From contig NC_086108.1 of assembly GCF_963921235.1 (NCBI RefSeq), forward strand, positions 56,794,001 through 56,858,000: a DNA stretch of 64,000 bases, read 5' to 3'. Of the stretch, positions 1,532-62,559 are shown piece by piece. This stretch comes from Mobula hypostoma. Taxonomy: Eukaryota. Position 1 is the stretch's first letter. Each line of letters begins with the position of its first letter. The position numbers were made by a program, and so were the translations under genes. Under the pieces are notes generated by a model, which saw only the letters and a list, made by a program, of their open reading frames with translations, did not search any database and had not been told where the DNA came from.

Positions 1532-2051
1532 GTAAGTAGCTTTAATTTCACTCATCACCTTGACTAATCACTAAGTTTTTTTAGATTTTTTAAATTGATA
1601 TCAGTATAAATTTGAAAAGTTTTCCATGACAATGGTGTAATGGGAAAGTAAGTCAGTTGCTTTGCCAGACTTCAGTACACAGAGTGCTAGTTCTTGAGCA
1701 TCTGCCTCTTCAGCAGAAGTTGTCAGCAGAAATCACAGGACAAGATCGTCATAGTCTGGTGGAGTCACCTCTTTTCTCTTCCTGCGGCCCCTCTACCTCT
1801 CTTGCTCCCTTGACTTCCCCTTCTTCCACCCTGACTCCCAGATATAATGCTTGAAGGGTTTTTGAATGATTGTTTGATCTGCTTTCTTTTTGCATCGAAA
1901 CTTTTAACCTTTTCTTTATATTTGCAAACACTAATTGAGTTAATAGATATTTTCATTATTTCTCATCCTTCTTTGAGACTTTCTGTTGCTAATTTCATAC
2001 CTGTTTGTTCAGCTTTACTGGCACAAGATAACTTTCATGTCTCTGAAATAG

Positions 2052-5000
2052 AAACATAGAAACATAGAAAATAGGTGCAGGAATAGGCCATACGGCCCTT
2101 CGAGCCTGCACCGCCATTTATTATGATCATGGCTGATCATCCAACTCAGAACCCCGCCCCAGCCTTCCCTCCATACCCCCTGACCCCTGTAGCCACAAGG
2201 GCCATATCTAACTCCCTCTTAAACATAGCCAATGAACTGGCCTCAACAGTTTGCTGTGGCAGAGAATTCCACAGATTCACCACTCTCTGTGTGAAGAAGT
2301 TTTTCCTAATCTCAGTCCTAAAAGGCTTCCCCTCTATCCTCAAACTGTGACCCCTCGTTCTGAACTTCCCCAATATCGGGAACAATCTTCCTGCATCTAG
2401 CCTGTCCAATCCCTTTAGGATCTTATATGTTTCAATCAGATCCCCCCTCAATCTTCTAAATTCCAACGAGTACAAGCCCAGTTCATCCAGTCTTTCTTCA
2501 TATGAAAGTCCTGCCATCCCAGGAATCAATCTGGTGAACCTTCTTTGTACTCCCTCTATGGCAAAGATGTCTTTCCTCAGATTAGGGGACCAAAACTGCA
2601 CACAATACTCCAAGTGTGGTCTCACCAAGGCCTTGTACAACTGCAGTAGTACCTCCCTGCTCCTGTACTCGAATCCTCTCGCTATAAATGCCAGCATACC
2701 ATTCGCTTTTTTCACCGCCTGCTGTACCTGCATGCCCACTTTCAATGACTGGTGTACAATGACACCCAGGTCTCGTTGCACCTCCCCTTTTCCTAATCGG
2801 CCACCAATCAGATAATAATCTGTTTTCCTATTTTTGCCACCAAAGTGGATAACTTCACATTTATCCACATTAAATTGCATCTGCCATGAGTTTGCCCACT
2901 CACCCAACCTATCCAAGTCACCCTGCATCCTCTTAGCATCCTCCTCACTGCTAACACTGCCACCCAGCTTCGTGTCATCCGCAAACTTGGAGATGCTGCA
3001 TTTAATTCCCTCATCCAAGTCATTAATATATATTGTAAACAACTGGGGTCCCAGCACTGAGCCTTGCGGTACCCCACTAAGTCACCGCCTGCCATTCTGA
3101 AAAGGTCCCGTTTATTCCCACTCTTTGCTTCCTGTCTGCTAACCAATTCTCCACCCACACCAATACCTTACCCCCAATACCGTGTGCTTTAAGTTTGCAC
3201 ACTAATCTCCTGTGTGGGACCTTGTCAAAAGCCTTTTGAAAATCCAAATATACCACATCCACTGGTTCTCCCCTATCCACTCTACTAGTTACATCCTCAA
3301 AAAATTCTATGAGATTCGTCAGACATGATTTTCCTTTCACAAATCCATGCTGACTTTGTCCGATCATTTCACCGCTTTCCAAATGTGCTTTTATCACATC
3401 CTTGATAACTGACTCCAGCAGTTTCCCCACCACCGACGTTAGGCTAACCGGTCTATAATTCCCCGGTTTCTCTCTCCCTCCTTTTTTAAAAAGTGGGGTT
3501 ACATTAGCCACCCTCCAATCCTCAGGAACTAGTCCAGAATCTAACGAGTTTTGAAAAATTATCACTAATGCATCCACTATTTCTTGGGCTACTTCCTTAA
3601 GCACTCTAGGATGCAGACCATCTGGCCCTGGGGATTTATCTGCCTTCAATCCCTTCAATTTACCTAACACCACTTCCCTACTAACATGTATTTCACTCAG
3701 TTCCTCCATCTCACTGGACCCTCTGTCCCTTACTATTTCTGGAAGATTATTTATGTCCTCCTTAGTGAAGACAGAACCAAAGTAATTATTCAATTGGTCT
3801 GCCATGTCCTTGCTCCCCATAATCAATTCACCTGTTTCTGTCTGCAGGGGACCTACATTTGTCTTTACCAGTCTTTTCCTTTTTACATATCTATAAAAGC
3901 TTTTACAGTCCGTTTTTATGTTCTCTGCCAGTTTTCTCTCATAATCTTTTTTCCCCTTCCTAATTAAGCCCTTTGTCCTCCTCTGCTGAACTCTGAATTT
4001 CTCCCAGTCCTCAGGTGAGCCACTTTCTCTGGCTAATTTGTATGCTTCTTCTTTGGAATTGATACTATCCCTAATTTCTCTTGTCAGCCACGGGTGCACT
4101 ACCTTCCTTGATTTATTCTTTTGCCAAACTGGGATGAACAATTGTTGTAGTTCATCCATGCAACCTTTAAATGCTTGCCATTGCATATCCACCGTCAATC
4201 CTTTAAGTGTCATTTGCCAATCTATCTTAGCTAATTCACGTCTCATACCTTCAAAGTTACCCCTCTTTAAGTTCAGAACCTTTGTTTCTGAATTAACTAT
4301 GTCACTCTCCATCTTAATGAAGAATTCCAGCATATTATGGTCACTCTTACCCAAGGGACCACTCACGACAAGATCGCTAATTAACCCTTCCTCATTGCTC
4401 AAAACCCAGTCCAGAATAGCCTGCTCTCTAGTTGGTTCCTCGACATGTTGGTTCAAAAAACCATCCCGCATACATTCCAAGAAATCCTCTTCCTCAGCAC
4501 CTTTACCAATTTGGTTCACCCAGTCTACATGTAGATTGAAGTCACCCATTATAACTGCTGTTCCTTTATTGCACACATTTCTAATTTCCTGTTTAATACC
4601 ATCTCCGACCTCACTACTACTATTAGGTGGCCTGTACACAACTCCCACCAGCGTCTTCTGCCCCTTAGTGTTACGCAGCTCTACCCATATCGATTCCACA
4701 TCTTCCCGGCTTATGTCCTTCCTTTCTATTGCGTTAATCTCTTCTTTAACCAGCAACGCCACCCCACCTCCCCTTCCTTCATGTCTATCCCTCCTGAATA
4801 TTGAATATCCCTGAACGTTGAGCTCCCATCCCTGGTCACCCTGGAGCCATGTCTCTGTGATCCCAACTATATCATAATCATTAATAACAATCTGCACTTT
4901 CAATTCATCCACCTTATTACGAATGCTCCTTGCATTGACACATAAAGCCTTCAGGCGCTCTTTTACAACTCTCTTAGCCCTTGTACAATTATGTTGAAAA

Positions 5001-5356
5001 GTGGCCCTTTTTAATGCTTGCCCTGGATTTGTCGGCCTGCCACTTTTACTTTTCTCCTTTGTACTTTTTGCTTCTACGCTCACTTTACACCCCACTGTCT
5101 CTCTGCACTGGTTCCCATCCCTCTGTTGTGAACTAACCTCCTCACGCCTAGCCTCTTTAATTTGATTCCCACCCCCCAACCATTCTAGTTTAAAGTCACC
5201 TCAGTAGCCCCCGCTAATCTCCCTGCCAGGATATTGGTCCCCCTAGGATTCAAGTGTAACCCGTCCTTTTTGTACAGGTCACGCCTGCGCCAAAAGAGGT
5301 CCCAATGATCCAAAAACTTGAATCCCTGCCCCCTGCTCCAATCCCTCAGCCACGCA
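2052..5356 (-). mobile_element. Young 5'-truncated CR1 LINE: ORF1 C-terminus plus complete ORF2 (APE endonuclease and RT) broken by one 1-nt insertion
   Basis: ORFs 3077-5179 and 2146-3057 (NARS, ITETW, GDFN, SDH, FADD). ORF1 end ...DGLHLNPRGTNILAGRLAGATEVTLN*. (TTTCTATG)n tail. Candidate TSD AAATAG at 2046-2051 and 5356-5361. Confidence 0.95.
5185..5194 (-). other. Slippery heptamer U_UUA_AAC plus ORF1 stop at CR1 ORF1/ORF2 overlap (putative -1 frameshift site)
   Basis: Minus strand ACT TTA AAC TAG in the ORF1 frame. The -1 frame reads TTT AAA CTA GAA TGG into ORF2. The same motif occurs at 31146-31155 and 58675-58684. Confidence 0.7.
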
Positions 5357-5672: not shown

Positions 5673-7788
5673 TAAATTGGAAACAGATGTTCTCAGGGAA
5701 ACGTACGGAAGAAATGTGGCAAATGTTCAGGGGATATTTGCATGGGGTTCTGAGTAGGTACATTCCAATGAGACATGGGAAGGATGGTAGGGTACAAGAT
5801 CCATGGTGTACAAAGGCTGTTGTAAATCTAGTCAAGAAGATAAGAAGAGCTTACGAAAGGTTCAAATAACTAGGTAATGATATGAATCTAGAAGATTATA
5901 AAGCTAGCAGAAAGGAGCTTAAGAATGAAATTAGGAGAGCCAGAAGGGGCCATGAGAAAGCCCTTGGCGGACAGGATTAAGGATATCCCCAAGGCATTCT
6001 ACAAGTATGTGAAGAGCAAGAGAATAGGACCAATCAAGTGTGACAGTGGGAAAGTGTGTATGGAACTGGAGGAAATAGCAGAGGTACTTAATGAATACTT
6101 TGCTTCAGTATTCTCTACGGAAAAGGATCTTGGCGATTGTAGGGATGACTTGCAGTGGACTGAAAAGCTTGAGAATGTAGATATTAAGAAAGGGATATGC
6201 TAGTGCTTTTGAAAAGCATCAAGTCGGATAAGTTGCCGGGACCGGATGAGATGTACCCCAGGCTACTGTGGGAGGCGAGTGAGGAGATTGCTGAGCCTCT
6301 GGCAATGATCTTTGCATCATCAATGGGGACGGGAGAGGTTCCGGAGGATTGGAGGGTTGTGGATATTGTTCCATTATTCAAGAAAGGGAGTAGGGATAGC
6401 CCAGGAAATTATAGGCCAGTGAGTCTTACTTCAGTGGTTGGTAGGTTGATGGAGAAGATCCTGAGAGGCAGGATTTATGAACATTTGGAGAGGCATAATA
6501 TGATTAGGAATAGTCAGCATGGCTTTGTCAAAGGCAGGTCATGCCCTACGAGCGTGATTGAATTTTTTGAGGATGTGACTAAACACATTGATGAAGGTAG
6601 AGCCGTAGATGTAGTGTATATGGATTTTAGCAAGGCATTTGATAAGGTAAGCCATGCAAGGCTTATTGAGAAAGTAAAGAGGCATGGGATCCAAGGGGAC
6701 ATCGCTTTGTGGATCCAGAACTGGCTTACCCACAGAAGGCAAAGAGTGGTTGTAGACGGGTCATATTCTGCATGGAGGCCGGTGACCAGTGGTGTGCCTC
6801 TGGGATCTGTTCTGGGACCCCTACACTTTGTGATTTTTATGGATAAGGAAATGGAGGGATGGGTTAGTAAACTTGCTGATGACACAAAGGTTGGGGGTGT
6901 TGTGGATAGAGTGGAGGGCTGTCAGAGGTTACAACGGGACATTGATAGGATGCAAAACTGGGCTGAGAAGTGACAGATGGAGTTCAACCCAGATAAGTGT
7001 GAGGTGGGTTATTTTGGTAGGTCAACTATGATGGCAGAATATAGTATTAATGGAGGACTCTAGGCAGTGTGGAGGATCAGAGGGATCTTGGGTTCCAATT
7101 CCATAGGACACGTAAAACTGCTATGCAGGTCAGCTCTGTGGTTAAGAAGGCAAACGGTGCATTAGCCTTCATCAATTGTTGGATTGAGTTTAAGAGACGA
7201 GAGGTAATGTTGCAGCTGCATAGAACCCTGGTCAGACCCCACTTGGAGTACTCTGCTCAATTCTAGTCACCTCACTAGAGGAAGGACATGGAAACCATAG
7301 AAAGGGTGCAGAGGAGATTTACAAGGATGTTGCCTGGATTGGGGAACATGCCTTATGAGGATAGGTTGAATGAACTCGGCCTTATCTCCTTGGAGCAACG
7401 GAGGTTGAGAGGTGACTTGATAGAGGTGTACAAGATAATGAGAGGCATTGATCGTGTGGATAGTCAGAGGCTTTTTCTCTGGGCTGAAATGGTTAGCACA
7501 AGAGGGCATAGTTTTAAGGCGCTTGGAAGTAGGTACAGAGGAGATGTCAGGGGTAAGTTTTTCACGCAGAGAGTGGTGAGTGTGTGGAATGGGCTGCTGG
7601 CGACGGTGGTGGAGGCGGAAAATGATAGGGTCTTTTAAGAGACTCCTGGATGGGTACATGGAACTTAGAAAAATAGAGGGCTATGGGTAAAGCCTAGGTA
7701 TGAGCTTATAGTTCTAAGGTAGGGACATGTTCGGCACAGCTTTGTGGGCTGAAGGGCCTGTATTGTGCTGTATGTTTTCTATGTTTCT
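5673..7788 (+). mobile_element. 5'-truncated CR1 LINE (RT region, with frameshifts and stops)
   Basis: ORFs 5925-6203, 6197-6973 and 7288-7638 with CR1 RT motifs. Tail ttttctatgtttcta. Confidence 0.93.
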
Positions 7789-20527: not shown

Positions 20528-21794
20528 AAGAAGAATATCTTTATTGTCATTGTTGTGGAGCAATGAAACACAGTTTAGCAGCTCAACGTTTTGCAGCATG
20601 ACAAAGAATATATACATAAAATAAACTCTAAAACCTCAGGAGTGCCGTCCAAAATTAATAATATATGGATGGGGGGGTAGGACTATTGCACACCTGCCAT
20701 TCCTGGAAGTGTGATGCATTTAGCTGCTGCTGTCTTAGGAGGGGGTCAGGAGAAGGGAAGGGGGTGTTATACATTCCACTGCTTGTGGGTAGAAGCTGTT
20801 AAGGAGTCTCTTTGTTTTCGTCCTTAATGCTCTGTATCTCTTCCCAGAAGGTAGAGGGGAAAACAGGTGATGTCCAGGATGAGTGGGATCCTTCGAAATA
20901 CAAGTAGCCTTCTTTTGAAGTCTGCCAGTATAAGTGTCTCTGAGGGAGGGTAATGAACCCGCTGCAAGTCCTTCCTGTTCTGTTCTGTGCAGCTGGCAAA
21001 CCGCACTGCACAGCAATACGTCAGGAGGCTCTCTATAGTTGTCTGATAGAAGTTGATCAGCAGGTGATGAGGGAAGAGAGCGTGCTTTAGCTTCCTTAGG
21101 AAGTAGAGCCTCTGTTGGGCCTTCCCCACCTGATAAGAGATATGGGCAGTCCAGGTGAGGTCAGCCGAGATGTGGACGCTGAGGAACTTGAAACTCTCTA
21201 CTCTCTCCACCTCTTTCCCGTATATGTGCAGAGCAGAGTGCTCGACGCGCTTTGATTTCCTGAAGTCTACTATCAGCTCCTTGGTTTTTGTGATGTTCAA
21301 GTCCAGGTTATTATGACAACACCATTCTGTCAAATGCTGTACCTCCTCCCTATAGGCTGTCTCATCACAGTCTGATATGATACCTATTAGGGTGGTATCA
21401 TCTGCAAATTTGACAATGGTGTTGGTGGAGTGAATGGTAGAGCAATCATGGGTGAAAAGAGAATAGAGGATGGGGCTGAGAACACACCCCTGTGGTGTAC
21501 CGGTGTTCAGGATGAGAGTAGATGATGTGTGTTCTCCCATCCTGACACTTTGGGGTCTGTTACTCAGAAAATCTAGTATCCGTGAGCACAGTGAACTGCC
21601 AAGGCCCAGGTTGCTCAATTTCTGCACCAGTTTGTAGGGGATGACTGTATTAAAAGCTGAGCTGTAGTCCACAAACAGCATTCTTACATAGGTGTTATCC
21701 TGATCCAGGTTTGTAAGGGCTGTGTGGAGAGCTGTGATGACTGCATCCTCTGTCGATCTGTTTGCTCGATACGCAAACTGGTATTTATCAAGGT
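20528..21794 (-). mobile_element. Rex1/Babar LINE (5'-truncated, RT) inserted in CR1 ORF1
   Basis: [37 protein letters not shown] at 20522-20527 and 21795-21800. Confidence 0.92.
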
Positions 21795-23123
21795 CAGTAG
21801 TTACCCACAAGGTGCAGGTCACAGGAAACTGGGTGACAGTCAGGAAGGGGAAAGGGGTTAAGGAGCCAGTACAGAGTACCCCTGTGGCCAGCCCCCTCAA
21901 CAACAGGTATATCACTTTGGATACAGTTGGGGGTGGCCAAACAGAGGAAAGTCACAGTGAGCGGTCTCTAGCACTGAGTCTGCCTCCGAAACTCAGAATG
22001 GAAAGGCGGAGAAGAGGCATAGGGGATTCGTTAGTTTGGGGAACAGACAGGAGGTTCTGTGGGCGAGAACGAAATTCCCAGATAGTATGTTGCCTCCCGG
22101 GTGCCAGGGTCTGGGATATCTCAGTTCAAATCCTGAGCATTCTTAAGTGGGAGGTGAACAGCCAGAGGTCATTGTCCATGTGTGTACCAACGACATGGGT
22201 AGGACAAATGATGAGCTTCTGCATAGGGAATTCAGGGAGTTAGATGTTAAGTTAAAGGCAGGACCCCCAGGGATGTGATCTCAGGATTTTTACCCGTGCC
22301 ACATGCTAGTGAGGCCAGAACTAGGAAAATTATACAGTTTAATATGTGGCTAAGGAGTTGGTGTCGGAGGGAGGGCATAAGATTTTTGAATCCTTAGATT
22401 TTCTTCCGGAGAAAGTGGGACCTATACAGAAGGGACGGTTTACACTGGAACTGGAGGGGGACTAATATTCTCGTGGAAAGGTTGGTTAATGCTGCACGGT
22501 GGGGTCAAACTAGAGTTACAGGGGGATGGGAACCAGAATGCCAGAACAGATAGTGGAGAGGTTGTGGAGGCAGATGTTGGTAAGACTTCAGACAATGTCA
22601 AGAATCAAAAGGCTGAACATGGTGCAGCTAGTGTCCTGAGCTGCGTGTTTTTTCAATGCATGAGTTATTGTAGGAAAGATAGTCGATAGTGCTGAAGATG
22701 AGGTAACTGGTTTACAAGCAGAGGCAATGTGTAGTGAGGAGAGGCTGTTGATAGGGCAAAGTTGCAGTCAACAGGATTAGTTGCAATGTAAAGGGGCAGA
22801 CAAAATCAAAAAGGATGAATACAGGACTGAAGTTGTTATATTTAAATGATTGCAGTATATGGAATGAGATAGATGAACTTGCAGCACAGTTGCAGATCGG
22901 CAAGTATGATGTTGTAAGCATCACTGAATCATGGCTGAAAGAAGATTATAGCTGGGAGTGTAATGTCCAAGGGTACACATTGTATTGAGAGGACAGGCAG
23001 GAAGGCAGAGGGGACGGCATTGGTCTGTTGGGAAAAATTGAAATCGAATCATTAGAAAGAAGTGATATAGGGTCAGAAGATGTTGAATCATTGTGACTAG
23101 AGCTAAGGAACTGCAAGAATAAA

Positions 23124-31100: not shown

Positions 31101-31611
31101 CCCCTTCCCCAACCCTATCATTCCAGTTCCCATTCCCCTGCCAAATTAGTTTAAACCCTCCTTAACAGCTCTATTAAACCTGCCTGCTAGGAACTTGGAC
31201 GCCTTTGGGTTCAGGTGTAACCCATCCTTTTTGTACAGGTCGTACCTCCTCCAGAAGAGGCCCCAGTGATCCAGCAACCCAAAGCCCTGCCCCCTCCACC
31301 AGTCTCTCAGCCACGCATTAATATGCCTGATCGTGCTATTTGCGCTCGTTAGCATGTGGCACAGGCAGCAATCCTGAGATTACTACCCTGGAGGTCCTGC
31401 TTTTCAGCTTCCTACCCAACACCCTGAACTCTCTCTTCAGAACCTCCTCCTTTTTTCCACCAATGTCATTGGTACCAACATGTACCAACACTTCTGGCTG
31501 TTCACCCTCTCCCTTCAGAATATTCTGCACCCAGTCCGAGACATCCCGTGCCCTTGCACCTGGGAGGCAACACACCACGCGGGTATCTCTATCAGGTTGA
31601 CAGAACCTCCA
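28181..31611 (-). mobile_element. Decayed CR1 LINE with ORF1 esterase region and ORF2
   Basis: CCLPGA, VHVGTND, DGLH (SGNH esterase), then EN/RT fragments. TSD GAAAG at 28176-28180 and 31612-31616. Confidence 0.9.
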
Positions 31612-40770: not shown

Positions 40771-41119
40771 AGCAGCTGCTGGCTCCGAGTTTCAGGATCA
40801 CTAGAAGTTCTGTTGGAGATCAGACCTGTCCTGATAACTGACTGGAGGTGATTCTGAGAAAAGGCTCGGTGCATAAGCCAAACCATTGTTCCATTCTCCA
40901 GCATCTCCTGGTATCATGAACAAAGTATAAATCTATCCACCAATCCAAAGGAGAGAGGAAAACACAACTATAAGCATGCCTTGGCTTCAAGGTATCACTG
41001 ACAGGATATTTTGGAGAGGGAAAAGCTGCTTTTATTTAGGGGAAAAGTTATATTTATTGGAATCATTTGTTTTAATTGAAACCTCGAGGAAAATAACAAA
41101 AATATTTTTATTATCACAG

Positions 41120-41333
41120 CCTCTCAAGGTAATTGAGATCAGAGGAAGAGTCCGGGGTTATAATGTAACCCTAAGGGAAAGTACAAAGCATAACTCTACC
41201 ATATGGACAAGGGAGACTAAAAACACGTGGTATACCGTGGGCATTCCCAGCACAGGCGGCGTCATCACTGTGTCTGTCTACAACTCCAGGGGCAGCTCTC
41301 CACCATCTGAACTCCGCCTGTCATCTCTCAGAG
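41120..41333 (+). CDS. IL12RB2: IL12RB2-like exon G (FNIII)
   Basis: atcacag/gtaaaa boundaries. Encodes PLKVIEIRGRVRGYNVTL...ITVSVYNSRGSSPPSELRLSSLR. Follows a 22.6 kb intron. Confidence 0.88.
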
Positions 41334-41777
41334 GTAAAACAAAATGTTTCTGTTTTCACAACATTACTGGAATATCCTTAAGAGGTCTAGAAAAGCAGGA
41401 GAAATTTGGTTTCCTCAGTTGCCTCCTACGCTTCTCCCTTTTCAGTTATCTGCTTTTCTCTTGTGAAGAGATTGGCTCATCCGAGGTGAATGATCTACAA
41501 ACGTTAGCTTCCTCTGACACCTTGATCCAATGGCCACCCTCTACTTGGGAGCCTAATTCTCAGGAGTTGCGTTTCATATTTCCACCTGCCTTAGTTTACT
41601 GCACAGAAACAGATCCATGCCTGTAGGATGAGATAGTTACCTTCAGTCTCTATCCCATCCCATTAACTAATCAGTCTATCATGCAAATTGCTTGTAACAA
41701 AATAAGGGTTCTCCGTAGTAATTCCCTGGGACCCACTATCATTAATATAGAAATCCAGCAAAATAACATTGTAGGTA

Positions 41778-55710: not shown

Positions 55711-58700
55711 CATAGAACCATAGAAACCATAGAAACTACAGCACAGAAACAGGCCCTTTGGCCCTTCTTGGCTGTGCCGAACCATTTTCTGCCTAGTCCC
55801 ACTGACCTGCACAAGGACCCTATCCCTCCATACACCTCCCATCCATGTATCTGTCCAATTTATTTTTAAGTGTTAAAAAAGAACCCGCATTTACCGCCTC
55901 ATCTGGCAGCTCATTCCATACTCCCACCACTCTCTTTGTGAAGAAGCCCCCCCCCAATGTTCCCTTTAAACTTTCCCCCCCTCACCCTTAACCCATGTCC
56001 TCTGGTTTTTTTCTCCCCTTGCCTCAGTGGAAAAAGCCTGCTTGCATTCACTCTATCTATACCCATCATAATTTTATAAACCTCTATGAGATCTCCCCTC
56101 ATTCTTCTACGCTCCAGGGAATAAAGTCCTAACCTATTCAACCTTTCTCTGTAACTGAGTTTCAACCTTATTTATATCCTTCCTGTAATTCGGTGACCAA
56201 AACTGGACACAATACTCCAGATTCGGCCTCACCAATGCCTTATACAACCTCATCATAACATTCCAGCTCTTATACTCAATACTTCGATTAATAAAGGCCA
56301 ATGTACCAAAAAGCTCTCTTTACTACCCTATCTACCTGTGACGCCACTTTTAGGGAATTTTGTATCTGTATTCCCAGACCCCTCTGTTCCACTGCACTCC
56401 TCAGTGCCTTACCATTAACCTGTATGTTCTACCTTGGTTTGTCCTTCCAACGTGCAATACCTCACACTTGTCTGTATTAAACTCCATCTGCCATTTTTCA
56501 GCCCATTTTTCCAGCTGGTCCAAATCCCTCTGCAGGCTCTGAAAACCTTCCTCACTGTCTACTACACCTCCAATCTTTGTATCATCAGCAAATTTGCTGA
56601 TCCAATTTACCACATTATCATCCAGATCATTGATATAGATGACAAATAACAATGGACCCAGCACTGATCCCTGTGGCATACCACTAGTCACAGGCCTCCA
56701 CTCAGAGAAGCAATTCTCTACTACCACTCTTTGGCTTCTTCTATTGAGCCAATGTCTAATCTAATTTACCACTTCTCCATATATACCTAGCGACTGAATT
56801 TTCCTAACTAACCTCCCATGCGGGACCTTGTCAAAGGCCTTACTGAAGTCCATGTAGACAATATCCACTGCCTTCCCTTCATCCACTTTCCTGGTAACCT
56901 CCTCGAAAAACTCCAATAGATTGGTCAAACATGACCTACCACGCACAAAGCCATGTTGACTCTCCCTAATAAGTCCCTGTCTATCCAAATGCTTGTAGAT
57001 TCTGTCTCTTAGTACTTCCTCCAATAACTTACCCACTACCAACGTTAAACTTCCTGGCCTATAATTTCCCGGATTACTTTTTGATCCTTTTTGAAACAAC
57101 GAAACAACATGAGCCACTCTCCAATCCTCCAGCACCTCACCTGTAGACAGCGACATTTTAAATATTTCTGCCAGGGTCCCTGCAATTTCAGCACTAGTCT
57201 CCCTCAAGGTCCGAGGGAACACTCTGTCAGGTCCCGGGGATTTATCCACTTTAATTTTCCTCAAGACAGCAAGGACCTCCACCTTTTCGATCTGTACAGT
57301 TTCCATGATCTCACTACTTGTTTCCCTTAATTCCATAGACTTCACGCCAATTTCCTTAGTAAATACAGACGCAAAAAACCTATTTAAGATCTCCCCCATT
57401 TTCTTTGGTTCCGCACATAGCCGACCACTCTGATCTTCAAGAGGACCAATTTTATCCCTTACAATCCTTTTGCTCTTAATATACCTGTAAAAGCTATTTG
57501 GATTATCCTTCACTTTGACTGCCAAGGCAACCTCATGTCTTTTTTTAGCCCTCCTGATTTCTTTCTTAAGTATTTTCTTGCACTTCTTATACTCCTCAAG
57601 CACCTTATTTACTCCCTGCTTCCTATACATGTCATACAACTCCCTCTTCTTCTTTATCAGAGTTGCAATATCCCTTGAGAACCAAGGTTCCTTATTCCTA
57701 TTCACTTTGCCTTTAATCCTGACAGGAACATACAAACTCTGCACTCTCAAAATTTCTCCTTTGAAGGCTTTCCACCTACCGATCACATCTTTGCCAGAGA
57801 ACAACCTGTCCCAATCCTTGCTTTTTAGATCCCTTCTCATTTCTTCAAATTTGGCCTTCTTCCAGTTCAGAACCTCAACCCTAGGACCAGATCTATCCTT
57901 GTCCACGATCAAATTGAAACTAATGGTGTTATGATCACTGGAACCGAAGTGCTCCCCTACACAGACTTCCATCACTTGTCCTAACTCATTTCCTAACAGG
58001 AGATCCAATATTGCATCCCCTCTAGTTGGTCCCTCTATATATTGATTTAGAAAACTTTCCTGAACACGTTTTACAAACTCTAAACCATCTAGACCCCTAA
58101 CAGTATGGGAGTCCCAATCAATATATGGAAAATTAAAATCCCCTACCACCACAACTTTATGTTTCCTGCAGTTGCCTGCTATCTCTCTGCAGATTTGCTC
58201 TTCCAAGTCTCGTTGACTATTGGGGGTAATACAATCCCACTAATGTGGCCATACCTTTCCTCTTTCTCAGCTCCACCCATAAGGACTCAGTAGACAAGCC
58301 CTCTAATCTGTCCTGCCTGAGCACTGCTGTAATATTTTCCCTAATAAGCAATGCTACTCCCCCACCTTTCATTCCTCTGCCTTGATCACATCTGAAACAT
58401 TGGAACCCTGGAATATTAAGCTGTCAGTCCTGCCCCTCCTGTAGCCAAGTTTCACTAATTGCTATAACGTCATAATTCCACGTGTCAATCCACGCCTTCA
58501 ACTCATCCGCCTTCCCCACAATACTCCTGGCATTGAAATATATACACCTCAGAAGATTTTTACCACCACTTACAACCTTTCCATTAGCGGATTTGCTTGA
58601 ACTTTTAACATCATTTATTTTTACCCCAGCCACACTGTCAGCTCTGGCACTCTGGTTCCCATCCCCCTGCAAATTTAGTTTAAAGCCTCCCCAAAAGCAC

Positions 58701-58812: not shown

Positions 58813-61113
58813 AGATCTAGTACTAGGTAATGAACCGGGTCAGGTCACAGATCTCTCAGTGGGTGAGCATCTGGGGGACAGTGACCACCGCTCCCTGGCC
58901 TTTAGCATTATCATGGAAAAGGATAGAATCAGAGAGGACAGGAAAATTTTTAATTGGGGAAGGGCAAATTATGAGGCTATAAGGCTGGAACTTGCGGATG
59001 TGAATTGGGATGATGTTTTTGCAGGGAAATGTACTATGGACATGTGGTCGATGTTTAGAGATCTCTTGCAGGATGTTAGGGATAAATTTGTCCTGGTGAG
59101 GAAGATAAAGAATGGTAGGGTGAAGGAACCATGGGTGACAAGTGAGGTGGAAAATCTAGTCAGGTGGAAGAAGGCAGCATACATGAGGTTTAGGAAGCAA
59201 GGATCAGATGGGTCTATTGAGGAATATAGGGAAGCAAGAAAGGAGATTAAGAAAGGGCTGAGAAGAGCAAGAAAGGGGCATGAGAAGGCCTTGGCGAGTA
59301 GGGTAAAGGAAAACCCCAAGGCATTCTTCAATTTTATGAAGAAAAAAAAGATGACAGGAGTGAAGGTAGACCGATTAGAGATAAAGGTGGGAAGATGTGC
59401 CTGGAGGCTGTGGAAGTGAGCGAGGTCCTCAGTGAATACTTCTCTTCAGTATTCACCAATGAGCGGGAACTTGATGATGGTGAGGACAATATGAGTGAGG
59501 TTGATGTTCTGGAGCATGTTGATATTAAGGGAGAGGAGGTGTTGGAGTTGTTAAAATACATTAGGACGGATAAGTCCCCGGGGCCTGATGGAATATTCCC
59601 CAGGCTGCTCCACGAGGCGAGGGAAGAGATTGCTGAGCCTCTGGCTAGGATCTTTATGTCCTCGTTGTCCACGGGAATAGTACCGGAGGATTGGAGGGAG
59701 GCGAATGTTGTCCCCTTGTTCAAAAAAAGTAGTAGGGATAGTCCATGTAATTATAGACCAGTGAGCCTTACGTCTGTGGTGGGATAGCTGTTGGAAAAGA
59801 TTCTTAGAGATAGGATCTCTGGGCATTTAGAGAATCATGGTCTGATCAGGGACAGTCAGCATGGTTTTGTGAAGGGCAGATCGTGTCTAACAAGCCTGAT
59901 TAGAGTTCTTTGAGGAGGTGACCAGGCATATAGATGAGGGTAGTGCAGTGGATGTGATCTCTATGGATTTTAGTAAGGCATTTGACAAGGTTCCACACGG
60001 TAGGTTTATTCAGAACGTCCAAAGGCATGGGATCCAGGGAAGTTTAGCCAGGTGGATTCAGAATTGGCTTGCCTGCAGAAGGCAGAGGGTCGTGGTGGAG
60101 GGAGTACATTCAGATTGGAGGATTGTAACTAGTGGTGTCCCACAAGGATCTGTTCTGGGACTTCTACTTTTCGTGATTTTTATTAATGACCTCGATGTGG
60201 GGGTAGAAGGGTGGGTTGGCAAGTTTGCAGACGACACAAAGGTTGGTGGTGTTGTAGATAGTGTAGAGGATTGTCAAAGATTGCAGAGAGACATCGATAG
60301 GATGCAGAAGTGGGCTGAGAAGTGGCAGATGGAGTTCAACCAGGAGAAGTGTGAGGTGGTACACTTTGGAAGGACAAACTCCAAGGCAGAGTACAAAGTA
60401 AATGGCAGGATACTTGGTAGTGTGGAAGAGCAGAGGGATCTGGGGTTACATGTCCACAGATCCCTGAAAGTTGCCTCACAGCTGGATAGGGTAGTTGAGA
60501 AAGCTTATGGGGTGTTAGCTTTCATAAGTCAAGGGATAGAGTTTAAGAGTCACGAGGTAATGATGCAGCTCTATAAAACTCTGGTTAGGCCACACTTGGA
60601 GTACTGTGTCCAGTTCTGGTCACTTCACTATAGGAAGGATGTGGAAGCATTGGAAAGGGTACAGAGGAGATTTACCAGGATGCTGCCTGGTTTAGAAAGT
60701 ATGCATTATGATCAGAGATTAAGGGAGCTAGGGCTTTACTCTTTGGAGAGGAGGAGGATGAGAGGAGACATGATAGAGGTGTACAAGATAATAAGAGGAA
60801 TAGATAGAGTGGATAGCCAGTGCCTCTTCCCCAGGGCACCACTGCTCAATACAAGAGGACATGGCTTTAAAGTAAGGGGTGGGAAGTTCAAGGGGGATAT
60901 TAGAGGAAGGTTTTTTACTCAGAGAGTGGTTGGTGCGTGAAATGCACTGCCTGGGTCAGTGGTGGAGGCAGATACACTGAAGTTTAAGAGACTACTAGAC
61001 AGGTATATGGAGGAATTTAAGGTGGGGGGTTATATGGCTGGCAGGGTTTGAGGGTTGGCACAACATTGTGGGCCAAAGGGCCTGTACTGTACTACTCTAT
61101 GTTCTATGTTCTA
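58813..61113 (+). mobile_element. 5'-truncated CR1 LINE
   Basis: ORFs 58859-59419, 59395-59787 and 59918-60940 (end of EN, RT with FADD). (TTCTATG)n tail. Confidence 0.93.
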
Positions 61114-61377: not shown

Positions 61378-62441
61378 TAGAAACATAGAAACATAGAAAA
61401 TAGGTGCAGGAGTAGGCCATTCGGCCCTTCGAGCCTGCACCGCCATTTATTATGATCATGGCTGATCATCCAACTCAGAACCCCGCCCCAGCCTTCCCTC
61501 CATACCCCCTGACCCCTGTAGCCACAAGGGCCATATCTAACTCCCTCTTAAACATAGCCAATGAACTGGCCTCAACAGTTTGCTGAGGCAGAGAATTCCA
61601 CAGACTCACCACTCTCTGTGTGAAGAAGTTTTTCCTAATCTCGGTCCTAAAAGGCTTCCCCTCTATCCTCAAACTGTGACCCCTCGTTCTGGACTTCCCC
61701 AACATCCGGAACAATCCTCCTGCATCTAGCCTGTCCAATCCCTTTAGGATCTTATACGTTTCAATCAGATCCCCCCTCAATCTTCTAAATTCCAACGAGT
61801 ACAAGCCCAGTTCATCCAGTCTTTCTTCATATGAAAGTCCTGCCATCCCAGGAATCAATCTGGTGAACCTCCTTTGTACTCCCTCTATGGCAAAGATGTC
61901 TTTCCTCAGATTAGGGGACCAAAACTGCACACAATACTCCAGGTGTGGTCTCACCAAGGCCTTGTACAACTGCAGTAGTACCTCCCTGCTCCTGTACTCG
62001 AATCCTCTCGCTATAAATGCCAGCATACCATTCGCCTTTTTCACCGCCTGCTGTACCTGCATGCCCACTTTCAATGACTGGTGTATAATGACACCCAGGT
62101 CTCGTTGCACCTCCCCTTTTCCTAATCGGCCACCATTCAGATAATAATCTGTTTTCCCATTTTTGCCAAAGTGGATAACTTCACATTTATCCACATTAAA
62201 TTGCATCTGCCATGAATTTGCCCACTCACCCAACCTATCCAAGTCACCCTGCATCCTCTTAGCATCCTCCTCACTGCTAACACTGCCGCCCAGCTTCGTG
62301 TCATCCGCAAACTTGGAGATGCTGCATTTAATTCCCTCATCCAAGTCATTAATATATATTGTAAACAACTGGGGTCCCAGCACTGAGCCTTGCGGTACCC
62401 CACTAGTCACCGCCTGCCATTCTGAAAAGGTCCCGTTTATT
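61378..62441 (-). mobile_element. Young 5'-truncated CR1, sister of the 2052-5356 copy
   Basis: Open RT C-terminal ORF, near-identical to 2052-3115. Confidence 0.95.
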
Positions 62442-62559
62442 GAATGCATGTTGCCATCATACATTTTCTCCATGTACCTATGGGCATCTTTTCATCTTCA
62501 CTGTTATCTAACTTCTGTGTGCAACAGCAAACATTCAAACTGTCATCATTCTCAATGCT

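Follow-up and report, generated by a model that had tools for sequence, protein, structure and literature searches.

The heptanucleotide UUUAAAC is an efficient site of -1 ribosomal frameshifting in eukaryotes, as in coronaviruses. Among the long interspersed nuclear elements (LINEs), the second open reading frame (ORF2) of human L1 is expressed by unconventional termination-reinitiation, and that of Bombyx SART1 by UAAUG stop-start coupling. In most non-mammalian vertebrates, the dominant LINEs belong to the CR1 group. This analysis concerns the junction between ORF1 and ORF2 of CR1-type LINEs in a 64,000-nucleotide stretch of the Mobula hypostoma genome (contig NC_086108.1, positions 56,794,001 to 56,858,000, forward strand), hereafter called the window, whose coordinates are counted from its first letter. 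For the Dictyostelium LINEs TRE5-A and TRE3-A, passages of one article state that ORF2 is reached by a -1 frameshift (PMC5911963), and the expression of L1 ORF2 is mentioned in passages of a review (Atkins 2016).

In the CR1 elements of the window, ORF1 ends with the heptamer T_TTA_AAC, set in phase and directly followed by the stop codon, and ORF2 occupies the -1 frame. We propose, with a probability of about 0.75 and on the strength of sequence comparison, that CR1 ORF2 is expressed by -1 programmed ribosomal frameshifting, which would yield an ORF1-ORF2 fusion. Support for this reading, which an original prediction made from the window alone had put forward, comes from the phase of the heptamer, the constant -1 frame of ORF2, conservation at positions that are free to vary, the depth of that conservation and the existence of intact copies.

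The ORF1/ORF2 junction in the window

Three copies of the element, A, B and C, retain the junction, and a fourth carries it in a decayed form. Their features are the following.

5188..5194, minus strand: heptamer T_TTA_AAC of copy A, the putative slippery site, in phase X_XXY_YYZ with ORF1 (codons ACT TTA AAC)
5185..5187, minus strand: ORF1 stop codon TAG of copy A, immediately 3' of the heptamer
5201..5203, minus strand: TGA that shuts the -1 (ORF2) frame of copy A, two codons 5' of the heptamer
5172..5177, minus strand: G-run GGGGGG of copy A, beginning 10 nt past the heptamer, conserved at the nucleotide level and a candidate 3' stimulator
3077..5200, minus strand: ORF2 frame of copy A, 707 open codons, with the linker, the EEP endonuclease and the first half of the reverse transcriptase (RT)
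2146..3081, minus strand: remainder of copy A ORF2 in another frame, with the second half of the RT and the C-terminal part (PF00078, 6.6e-12)
5185..5356, minus strand: 3' remnant of copy A ORF1, an esterase tail reading ...AWLRDWSRGQGFKFLDHWDLFW...DGLHLNPRGTNILAGRLAGATEVTLN*, with homology to the other copies starting near 5356
2048..2074, minus strand: 3' end of copy A, the 8-base repeat TTTCTATG (element strand) present 3.5 times, without poly(A) and with unrelated sequence beyond
31135..31155, minus strand: junction of copy B, GGT TTA AAC TAA, a 7-nt spacer and GGGG, with the ORF2 frame in -1 and shut two codons upstream
58663..58684, minus strand: junction of copy C, GCT TTA AAC TAA, a 7-nt spacer and GGGGG, with the ORF2 frame in -1 and no Met ahead of the endonuclease motif
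22504..22525, plus strand: decayed junction of the fourth copy, GTCAAAC TAG AGTTACA GGGGG, reading GTCAAACTAG and then AGTTACAGGGGG

Around the junction, the minus strand of copy A reads ...GAG GTG ACT TTA AAC TAG AAT GGT TGG GGG GTG GGA ATC, and the product of ORF1 ends TEVTLN*. In the ORF2 frame the bases after the TGA are read as GGT GAC TTT AAA CTA GAA TGG TTG, and a change from one frame to the other is possible only within 5200-5188 (-). The frame at 3077..5200 matches Pfam PF03372 (3.1e-12), PF14529 (9.8e-10) and PF00078 (6.3e-16), and ORF2 is broken by a frame change near 3080. Because it is 5'-truncated and carries this one frame break, copy A is a dead copy; its junction is intact. 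Copies B and C are about 75% identical to copy A around the junction, where they carry T_TTA_AAC_TAA at 31155-31146 (-), after an ORF1 tail ...KEGLN*, and at 58684-58675 (-), after ...GEALN*, respectively.

The heptamer TTTAAAC alone is not enriched in the window (19 observed vs 13.8 expected). The exact form TTTAAACTAR occurs at three sites, all of them homologous junctions, and the composite TTTAAACTRR-N5-9-GGGG occurs at exactly three, the junctions of copies A, B and C, vs 0.01 expected. The anatomy given in the original prediction was borne out in these respects: ORF1 of copy A ends ACT TTA AAC TAG with the heptamer in phase (5196-5185 on the minus strand), the -1 frame is shut by TGA at 5203-5201 and open for 707 codons, T_TTA_AAC_TAR recurs in two further, diverged copies (31155-31146 and 58684-58675) with ORF2 again in -1, and the decayed junction was found at 22504-22513, on the plus strand.

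Identity of the element and its intact copies

ORF1 of the element encodes an SGNH/GDSL esterase domain (PF13472, 5.5e-10) and ORF2 an APE-type endonuclease followed by a reverse transcriptase, as identified with Pfam. A 3' end made of an 8-base tandem repeat without poly(A), which is a feature of CR1, is matched by the 3.5 units of TTTCTATG at 2074-2048. The elements are classed as CR1-type LINE retrotransposons, their junction matching that of consensuses labelled LINE/CR1 (PMC13343379, Supplementary Table 2). According to passages of the same article, an esterase ORF1 is the only identifiable ORF1 type in CR1 and L2 (PMC13343379). The closest named relative of ORF1 is a protein of Mobula hypostoma, with 97% identity.

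The family was followed through the 3.48-Gb assembly (200 contigs). Searching the whole genome for the Pfam esterase turned up 29,326 first-look candidates; 150 of these were scored, and 30 loci were fetched. ORF1 ends at TTTAAAC TAG in 22 of these 30 loci and one has TATAAAC; for the remaining seven the script chose a broken or different frame, and at least five of them still hold the composite motif. In nine loci ORF1 is open for 341 codons from stop to stop, or 311 residues from the first Met, and comprises a cysteine-rich (zinc-finger-like) N-terminus, a coiled coil and the GDSL esterase. The -1 frame is open to the limit of the fetched stretch, at least 483 codons, in seven of the 30. A whole ORF1 and an open ORF2 frame stand together in loci L077, L084, L089 and L090, and also in L075, whose ORF1 frame has 353 codons. 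Because such copies exist, the -1 offset is the working arrangement of a recently active family, and not damage.

One of these intact copies bears on the idea that the shift of frame takes place in the RNA, through slippage of the polymerase, editing or splicing, an idea in whose favour nothing was found. Contigs from four public runs over the L089 junction show no indel or joint at the heptamer among the variants listed, a weak indication given that the runs are not recorded as RNA; variants are listed at 1968-1991 and from 2025 on, and none at 1992-2024, the heptamer lying at 1992-1998. Runs of three T and three A are, moreover, too short for known transcriptional slippage. We give a change of frame in the RNA next to no chance, and -1 frameshifting by the ribosome is preferred as the way across the offset.

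A separate observation concerns a B-type copy, L133 (G000:C21:117242150-117242310, -), which has lost 23 bases between two GGTTTAA repeats, one of them in ...AGG TTT AAT... and the other at the heptamer. Its ORF1 continues in frame into ORF2 (...GTNILAGRF|KLIWQ...), with a listed open frame of 345 residues. This copy, which is probably dead, is a natural in-frame fusion produced by a microhomology deletion.

Conservation of the heptamer

Among 30 loci fetched as homologues of the copy A junction (72-100% identity), the match fell short of the site in four, and the heptamer TTTAAAC is exact in 21 of the 26 that span it. The same is true of 27/30 B-type copies, which are about 10% diverged from each other. 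Departures from the heptamer are one-base changes confined to single copies, as expected from decay after insertion. When junctions were located independently of the heptamer, by the ORF1 motif D-G-[LVITM]-[HQ]-[LP] with a stop in frame 15-32 codons on, 59 of 72 ended TTTAAAC|TAR, and all four additional loci chosen by protein similarity alone carry the heptamer.

Synonymous positions, which the original prediction had singled out as the place where a frameshift site should leave its mark, are not free at the junction. The codon before the heptamer is ACT, AGT, TGT, GGT, GCT, TAT, CAT, TTT or TCT, and TCG once; it thus encodes eight residues, and its third base is T in 19/20 lineage representatives. 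The terminal Leu is TTA and the terminal Asn AAC in 20/20 representatives, counts that are circular because the representatives were chosen by the motif, so that tables of them show the divergence of the flanks and not the frequency of the motif. Elsewhere in ORF1, conserved Leu positions are encoded by two to four different codons, and the Asn at codon -21 by AAT as well as by AAC.

A protein test independent of the motif was made with 265 ORF1-like proteins, 133 of which end in LN. The residue before the terminal LN takes 13 different values. A residue that no NNT codon encodes (Lys, Glu, Gln, Met or Trp) stands there in 2/133 proteins, vs 50/133 and 52/133 at the two preceding positions; together these five residues make up 20% of the overall composition. 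At the heptamer, conservation acts on bases and not on residues. Neither reading frame explains it, because the TTT AAA of the ORF2 frame is never read as Phe-Lys: the ORF2 frame is shut a few codons upstream, and no start-like codon lies between that stop and the heptamer.

The invariance of Leu-Asn at the protein level, together with the neighbouring G-run, which is conserved without predicted structure, would also suit bases that serve outside translation, as a packaging or localisation signal or in binding ORF1p, or a C-terminal Leu-Asn that is itself required, with ORF2 expressed by an unrelated route. A requirement on the protein, however, cannot dictate which of the six Leu codons is used (TTA), the use of AAC instead of AAT or the third base of the variable codon before them, and a generic RNA motif would need neither a fixed phase with both frames nor an adjoining stop. 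Such roles are in our judgement very unlikely to account for the heptamer, for which slippage of the ribosome remains the preferred explanation.

Distant relatives and published consensuses

The terminal Leu and Asn are invariant among 25 aligned ORF1 proteins, whose mean column identity is 40% and which come from rays, skates, sharks, coelacanth, frogs, turtles, squamates and birds. LN is the ending of 27 of 35 named ORF1 homologues and IN or VN that of two; in the others the gene models are truncated or fused. Scanning metagenome contigs with the ORF1 alignment gave 39 loci with 24-38% ORF1 identity, of which 25 were processed; ten of these ran off the end of the locus and 15 have the ORF1 stop inside. 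Ten of the 15 junctions read NNT TTA AAC TAG/TAA. Four are decayed, three of them retaining the motif out of frame, one of these with a TGA stop. The last, L097 (680-686), reads TCG TTA AAC TAG, that is GTTAAAC, the sole departure from the first T at the level of a lineage. The long downstream frame is always -1 in these relatives, with 401 to >833 codons. Across the copies compared, the -1 frame is shut 1-7 codons upstream in most, and up to 39 codons upstream in L095 and L101. In L094, L101 and L097, the -1 frames starting at the heptamer give Pfam matches to both endonuclease and RT; in L092 and L089, whose -1 stretches are shorter, the endonuclease alone is matched.

The comparison with CR1 consensuses that the original prediction had suggested was made in a 2026 survey of the CR1 group, in which the first 400 characters of each consensus are searchable (PMC13343379, Supplementary Table 2). 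Within these, TTTAAACT(AG/AA/GA) occurs 23 times, 18 of them at the ORF1/ORF2 junction by their flanks; TTTAAAC with a stop thus stands at the junction of 18 published consensuses. Seventeen are CR1 (AllMis, CroPor, AmiCal, AquCat, CalMil, HypSab, LatCha, PogVit (TGA), PriPec, ScyCan and SquAca) and one is labelled AldAff_Crack-2; the labels are read as alligator, crocodile, bowfin, bullfrog, elephant shark, stingray, coelacanth, bearded dragon, sawfish, catshark and spiny dogfish. The other five occurrences in the searchable part lie in 5' regions, two of SquAca and three of L2 or Rex1. The pattern extends from cartilaginous fishes to crocodilians and, at the level of the protein, to birds.

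In two of the dogfish consensuses, SquAca_CR1-18 and SquAca_CR1-3, the searchable part also holds GGTTTAAACTA(A/G) in the 5' region, about 130 bases before the start of ORF1, which may be chance or a fragment of the junction within the 5' untranslated region.

A second group of esterase ORF1 proteins, from metagenome contigs, ends differently: 16 end Gln-Gly-Asn (QGN) and one Ser-Gly-Asn (P0112, P0173, P0176, P0193, P0196, P0198, P0207, P0209, P0235 and P0255-P0262), and five further ORF1 proteins end Lys-Asn. In the QGN-ending group, CAG GGA AAC would supply a candidate heptamer G_GGA_AAC at the same place, and may do so. A search of the Mobula genome with one protein of this group found only relatives of 31-44% identity, and the four short stretches fetched are all of the LN type. 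A search of genome contigs for the DNA of the group returned only bacterial GDSL esterases, one of viral contigs returned none, and no junction of the QGN type is present in the first 400 characters of the supplement sequences (PMC13343379).

The adjacent stop and the downstream region

A stop codon, TAG, TAA or TGA, immediately follows the heptamer in 21/21 lineage representatives, and four to six G begin 10 nt past the heptamer. In 68 junctions located by homology, GGGG lies within 20 nt of the stop in 61, at an offset of exactly 7 in 53, and is GGGGG in 48; among the 18 published consensus junctions, 13 show the run within their searchable part. It reads NNG GGG GNN in the ORF2 frame, where the first codon varies (TTG, CAG, GAG, AAG, AGG, TCG). 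The G-run is therefore conserved as bases, its first codon changing residue. Both the stop that always adjoins the heptamer and the G-run about 10 bases downstream are new relative to the original prediction, and both probably belong to the signal.

The downstream region is purine-rich (35% G, 33% A, 14% C). A canonical G-quadruplex motif was found in 0/21 lineages and a two-tier motif near the site in 9/21, and the only hairpin that RNAalifold gave is a local one, near +35 to +60, confined to a single metagenome group.

In family A, that of copy A, a second GGGATGGGAACC-like motif lies at 5111-5120 (-), about 50 bases past the first G-rich motif (5163-5177, -), and the linker ahead of the endonuclease has about 73 residues, vs 46-50 in other lineages. 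The second motif and the longer linker suggest a small internal duplication of the linker.

The stop and the G-run would equally suit termination followed by reinitiation, or non-AUG initiation, in which ribosomes restart near the ORF1 stop and make ORF1p and ORF2p as separate proteins, and in which the G-run could hold the 40S subunit. The stop stands exactly at the junction in all lineages, a conserved and unstructured G-rich element comes after it, and L095 and L101 have an ATG in the ORF2 frame two codons past it; restart on an AUG-less ORF2 in L1 and UAAUG coupling in SART1 are established precedents. What such a restart leaves unexplained is the in-phase T_TTA_AAC, the fixed third-base T of a codon that otherwise varies freely, and an ORF2 frame that has stayed at -1 over several hundred million years. 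In close relatives of L095 and L101, moreover, the near-stop ATG is replaced by GTG, TCG or TGG, and most lineages have nothing else at the junction that looks like a start codon. A restart at the stop is thus an unlikely explanation, and -1 frameshifting is preferred to it.

The start of ORF2

Seven lineages have no Met in the ORF2 frame ahead of the endonuclease, the first one standing within or past it or being missing from the open frame: family A (residue 206), L020, L023, copy C, L092, L094 and L096. L094 has 821 open codons without an AUG before the endonuclease. In copy A, the initial 'M' listed for ORF2 is a TTG, at 5179, as had been noticed in the original prediction, and the first ATG of the frame is at 4549-4547 in ...VIMGDFN, at residue 211 counted from the TTG. 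The absence of an AUG ahead of the endonuclease, which that prediction had noted, holds for the copies with heptamers at 5194 and 58684 and for their families, but not for the lineage of the copy at 31155, where an in-frame Met stands 38 codons past the junction. The prediction had also taken an in-frame AUG as evidence that would speak against frameshifting; one is present ahead of the endonuclease in some lineages, and none in the seven named above.

No stop interrupts the ORF2 frame over the 140 nt past the heptamer in 6/9 own-genome lineages, where the other two frames have 3-9 stops.

Proposed mechanism

In the mechanism that we propose, a ribosome translating ORF1 would arrive at U_UUA_AAC with its P-site tRNA-Leu paired to UUA and its A-site tRNA-Asn paired to AAC. 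On a minority of occasions, the two tRNAs would slip one base back, to UUU and AAA, and reading would resume with CUA... in the ORF2 frame, giving an ORF1p-ORF2p fusion (esterase-endonuclease-RT) with the junction ...Leu-Asn-Leu...; ribosomes that do not slip would terminate at the next codon and release ORF1p. One mRNA could in this way yield abundant ORF1p and scarce polymerase at a fixed ratio, as in gag-pol, and the polymerase would be tethered to the ORF1p multimer through the shared coiled coil. The heptamer alone would presumably give a low rate of slippage, suiting a need for many ORF1p and very little polymerase, and, more speculatively, the adjacent stop and the G-run may raise or tune that rate. 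From the observed anatomy, phase, frame relation and pattern of conservation, we infer slippage, its efficiency and the fusion as the active form.

A broader hypothesis, which we hold only tentatively and think rather doubtful as a whole, would combine U_UUA_AAC, the adjacent stop, a 7-nt spacer and the G-run, as a linear stimulator without hairpin, into a CR1 recoding cassette that predates the split between cartilaginous and bony vertebrates. The stimulator might be read by a protein, which could be ORF1p, setting the amount of polymerase, or by ribosomal RNA, and the QGN-ending sister group may use G_GGA_AAC.

Several observations weigh against frameshifting as the route to ORF2. A Met stands ahead of the endonuclease in the B-type copies (codon 38), L097 (28), L102 (22), L095 and L101 (4) and L113 (3), and an independent start is therefore possible in these lineages. 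The first 15 codons past the junction show no third-position excess of change (0.319/0.431/0.309); they are kept open and are not visibly constrained as protein. No conserved hairpin was found by RNAalifold in the nine own-genome lineages (-0.29 kcal/mol), nor was the stimulatory hairpin 5-9 nt downstream that belongs to a canonical -1 signal, and the 90 nt downstream fold like shuffled sequences in 21/21 lineages (minimum free energy z -1.45 to +1.26), the tools used (RNAfold per lineage, RNAalifold) being unable to predict pseudoknots. In L097, the ORF2 frame is open for 835 codons from the junction and yet the heptamer is GTTAAAC; G_TTA_AAC is there either a recent mutation or a tolerated variant. 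To these is added the choice of the lineage representatives by the motif, noted above. Finally, retrotransposition of ZfL2-1, an element of the L2 clade, reportedly depends little on ORF1p (Kajikawa 2012, as cited in passages of PMC13343379), and the ORF1-null constructs of that study, if they kept the native junction, would speak against the fusion being obligatory in this L2 element.

The upstream Met codons, present in the B type and in several metagenome lineages, would be accounted for if ORF2 started independently at an internal AUG, through leaky scanning, an internal ribosome entry site or a separate transcript, the heptamer being incidental. That account meets the seven lineages without an AUG before the endonuclease, which include the young family A and L094, the differing positions of the AUG where there is one, and a heptamer equally well kept in lineages with and without it; its probability seems to us very small. 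Because the upstream Met positions are not common to the lineages, an AUG start cannot be the general mechanism, although it may contribute in some of them, and -1 frameshifting is retained as the most probable general route.

Other reading frames of the window and database labels

Other long open frames of the window lie at 6188-6973 (+), 20824-21951 (-), 40931-41626 (+), 56761-58239 (-), 59900-60940 (+) and 61475-62491 (-). The first of these reads as a reverse transcriptase, and the frame at 56761-58239 (-) is just downstream of the copy C junction. The window looks dense in LINE fragments.

The ORF1 of CR1 is misnamed in a number of public records (P0021, P0026, P0065, P0067, P0088). One carries the name of a Pseudomonas aeruginosa SGNH hydrolase; it lies on a 4-kb contig, is 61% identical to the ray ORF1 and is likely animal DNA within a bacterial assembly. 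Others bear the labels '40S ribosomal protein S24 isoform X2' (sawfish) and 'transmembrane protein 204' isoforms (manta), and a Xenopus-like ORF1 is filed under the frog parasite Protopolystoma xenopodis.

Comparison with known systems

A full-text search of the open literature found no report tying CR1 to frameshifting between ORF1 and ORF2; the caution about novelty attached to the original prediction stands, older subscription papers on CR1 and ZfL2-1 lying outside this coverage. Where searched, the words 'frameshift', 'overlap' and 'slippery' are absent from the main text of PMC13343379, PMC3905857, PMC4120745, PMC4176376 and PMC3880073. In the review of Atkins 2016, HeT-A, TART and mammalian L1 are the only non-LTR (long terminal repeat) elements named among the matches listed.

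If the proposal is correct, ORF2p would be produced solely in the form of an ORF1p-ORF2p fusion, at a low and fixed ratio, which is the logic of gag-pol in a non-LTR element, and the fusion would account for the way in which the polymerase is kept with its own RNA and the ORF1p multimer (cis preference) without a poly(A) tail. To the few conserved instances of -1 frameshifting known from vertebrate genomes, CR1 would then add one that is both abundant and very old, with a signal that seems to work without a hairpin. The junction would also provide an annotation rule by which to link ORF1 to ORF2 in CR1 elements, whose two frames are at present split or misnamed by gene predictors.

The arrangement is closest in form to retroviral gag-pol and coronaviral ORF1a/1b, with which it shares the in-phase X_XXY_YYZ (U_UUA_AAC in coronaviruses), a downstream gene in -1 without a start of its own, and an expected output of much structural protein and little polymerase, the latter as a fusion. 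It differs from them in that no conserved pseudoknot or hairpin was found 5-9 nt downstream, pseudoknots being outside the prediction, in that the 0-frame stop always adjoins the heptamer and the G-run after 10 nt is the sole conserved 3' element, and in that the host is a non-LTR retrotransposon with an esterase ORF1 in place of gag. With human L1 and Bombyx SART1, CR1 has in common a bicistronic LINE RNA whose ORF2 would depend on ribosomes translating ORF1, its own AUG being dispensable; unlike CR1, whose pattern of conservation picks out the heptamer, L1 and SART1 are not known to have an in-phase slippery heptamer, and their products are separate proteins. As to the start codon overlapping or adjoining the stop that is expected of a reinitiation junction, most CR1 lineages have no ATG near the stop in the ORF2 frame, and the ATG two codons past it is confined to L095 and L101.

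The protein-dependent -1/-2 signals of arteriviruses, such as PRRSV (the virus of porcine reproductive and respiratory syndrome), and of cardioviruses resemble the CR1 junction in that the stimulator lies farther off than a classical pseudoknot, and the PRRSV motif is likewise unstructured. In PRRSV the motif is C-rich and is bound by a viral protein together with the host poly(C)-binding protein, whereas the CR1 motif is G-rich. The spacing of 10 nt without structure recalls the stimulators 12-15 nt 3' of the shift site that are described in passages of the review of Atkins 2016, some of them being 'linear' mRNA bound by trans-acting factors. Among non-LTR elements, HeT-A of Drosophila has a gene said in the same passages to require a frameshift for its expression (Atkins 2016); the shift is there inside gag and not between ORF1 and the polymerase gene, and HeT-A has no RT. 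TRE5-A and TRE3-A are, like CR1, APE-type LINEs, and a -1 frameshift for their ORF2 is stated in passages of PMC5911963; they belong to an amoebozoan lineage and have a different ORF1, and the comparison is one of the stated frameshift and not of the shift site. Thus, -1 frameshifting in a LINE is already known, and what would set CR1 apart is an unusual and, to judge from the junctions compared, deeply conserved cassette of heptamer, adjacent stop and G-run.

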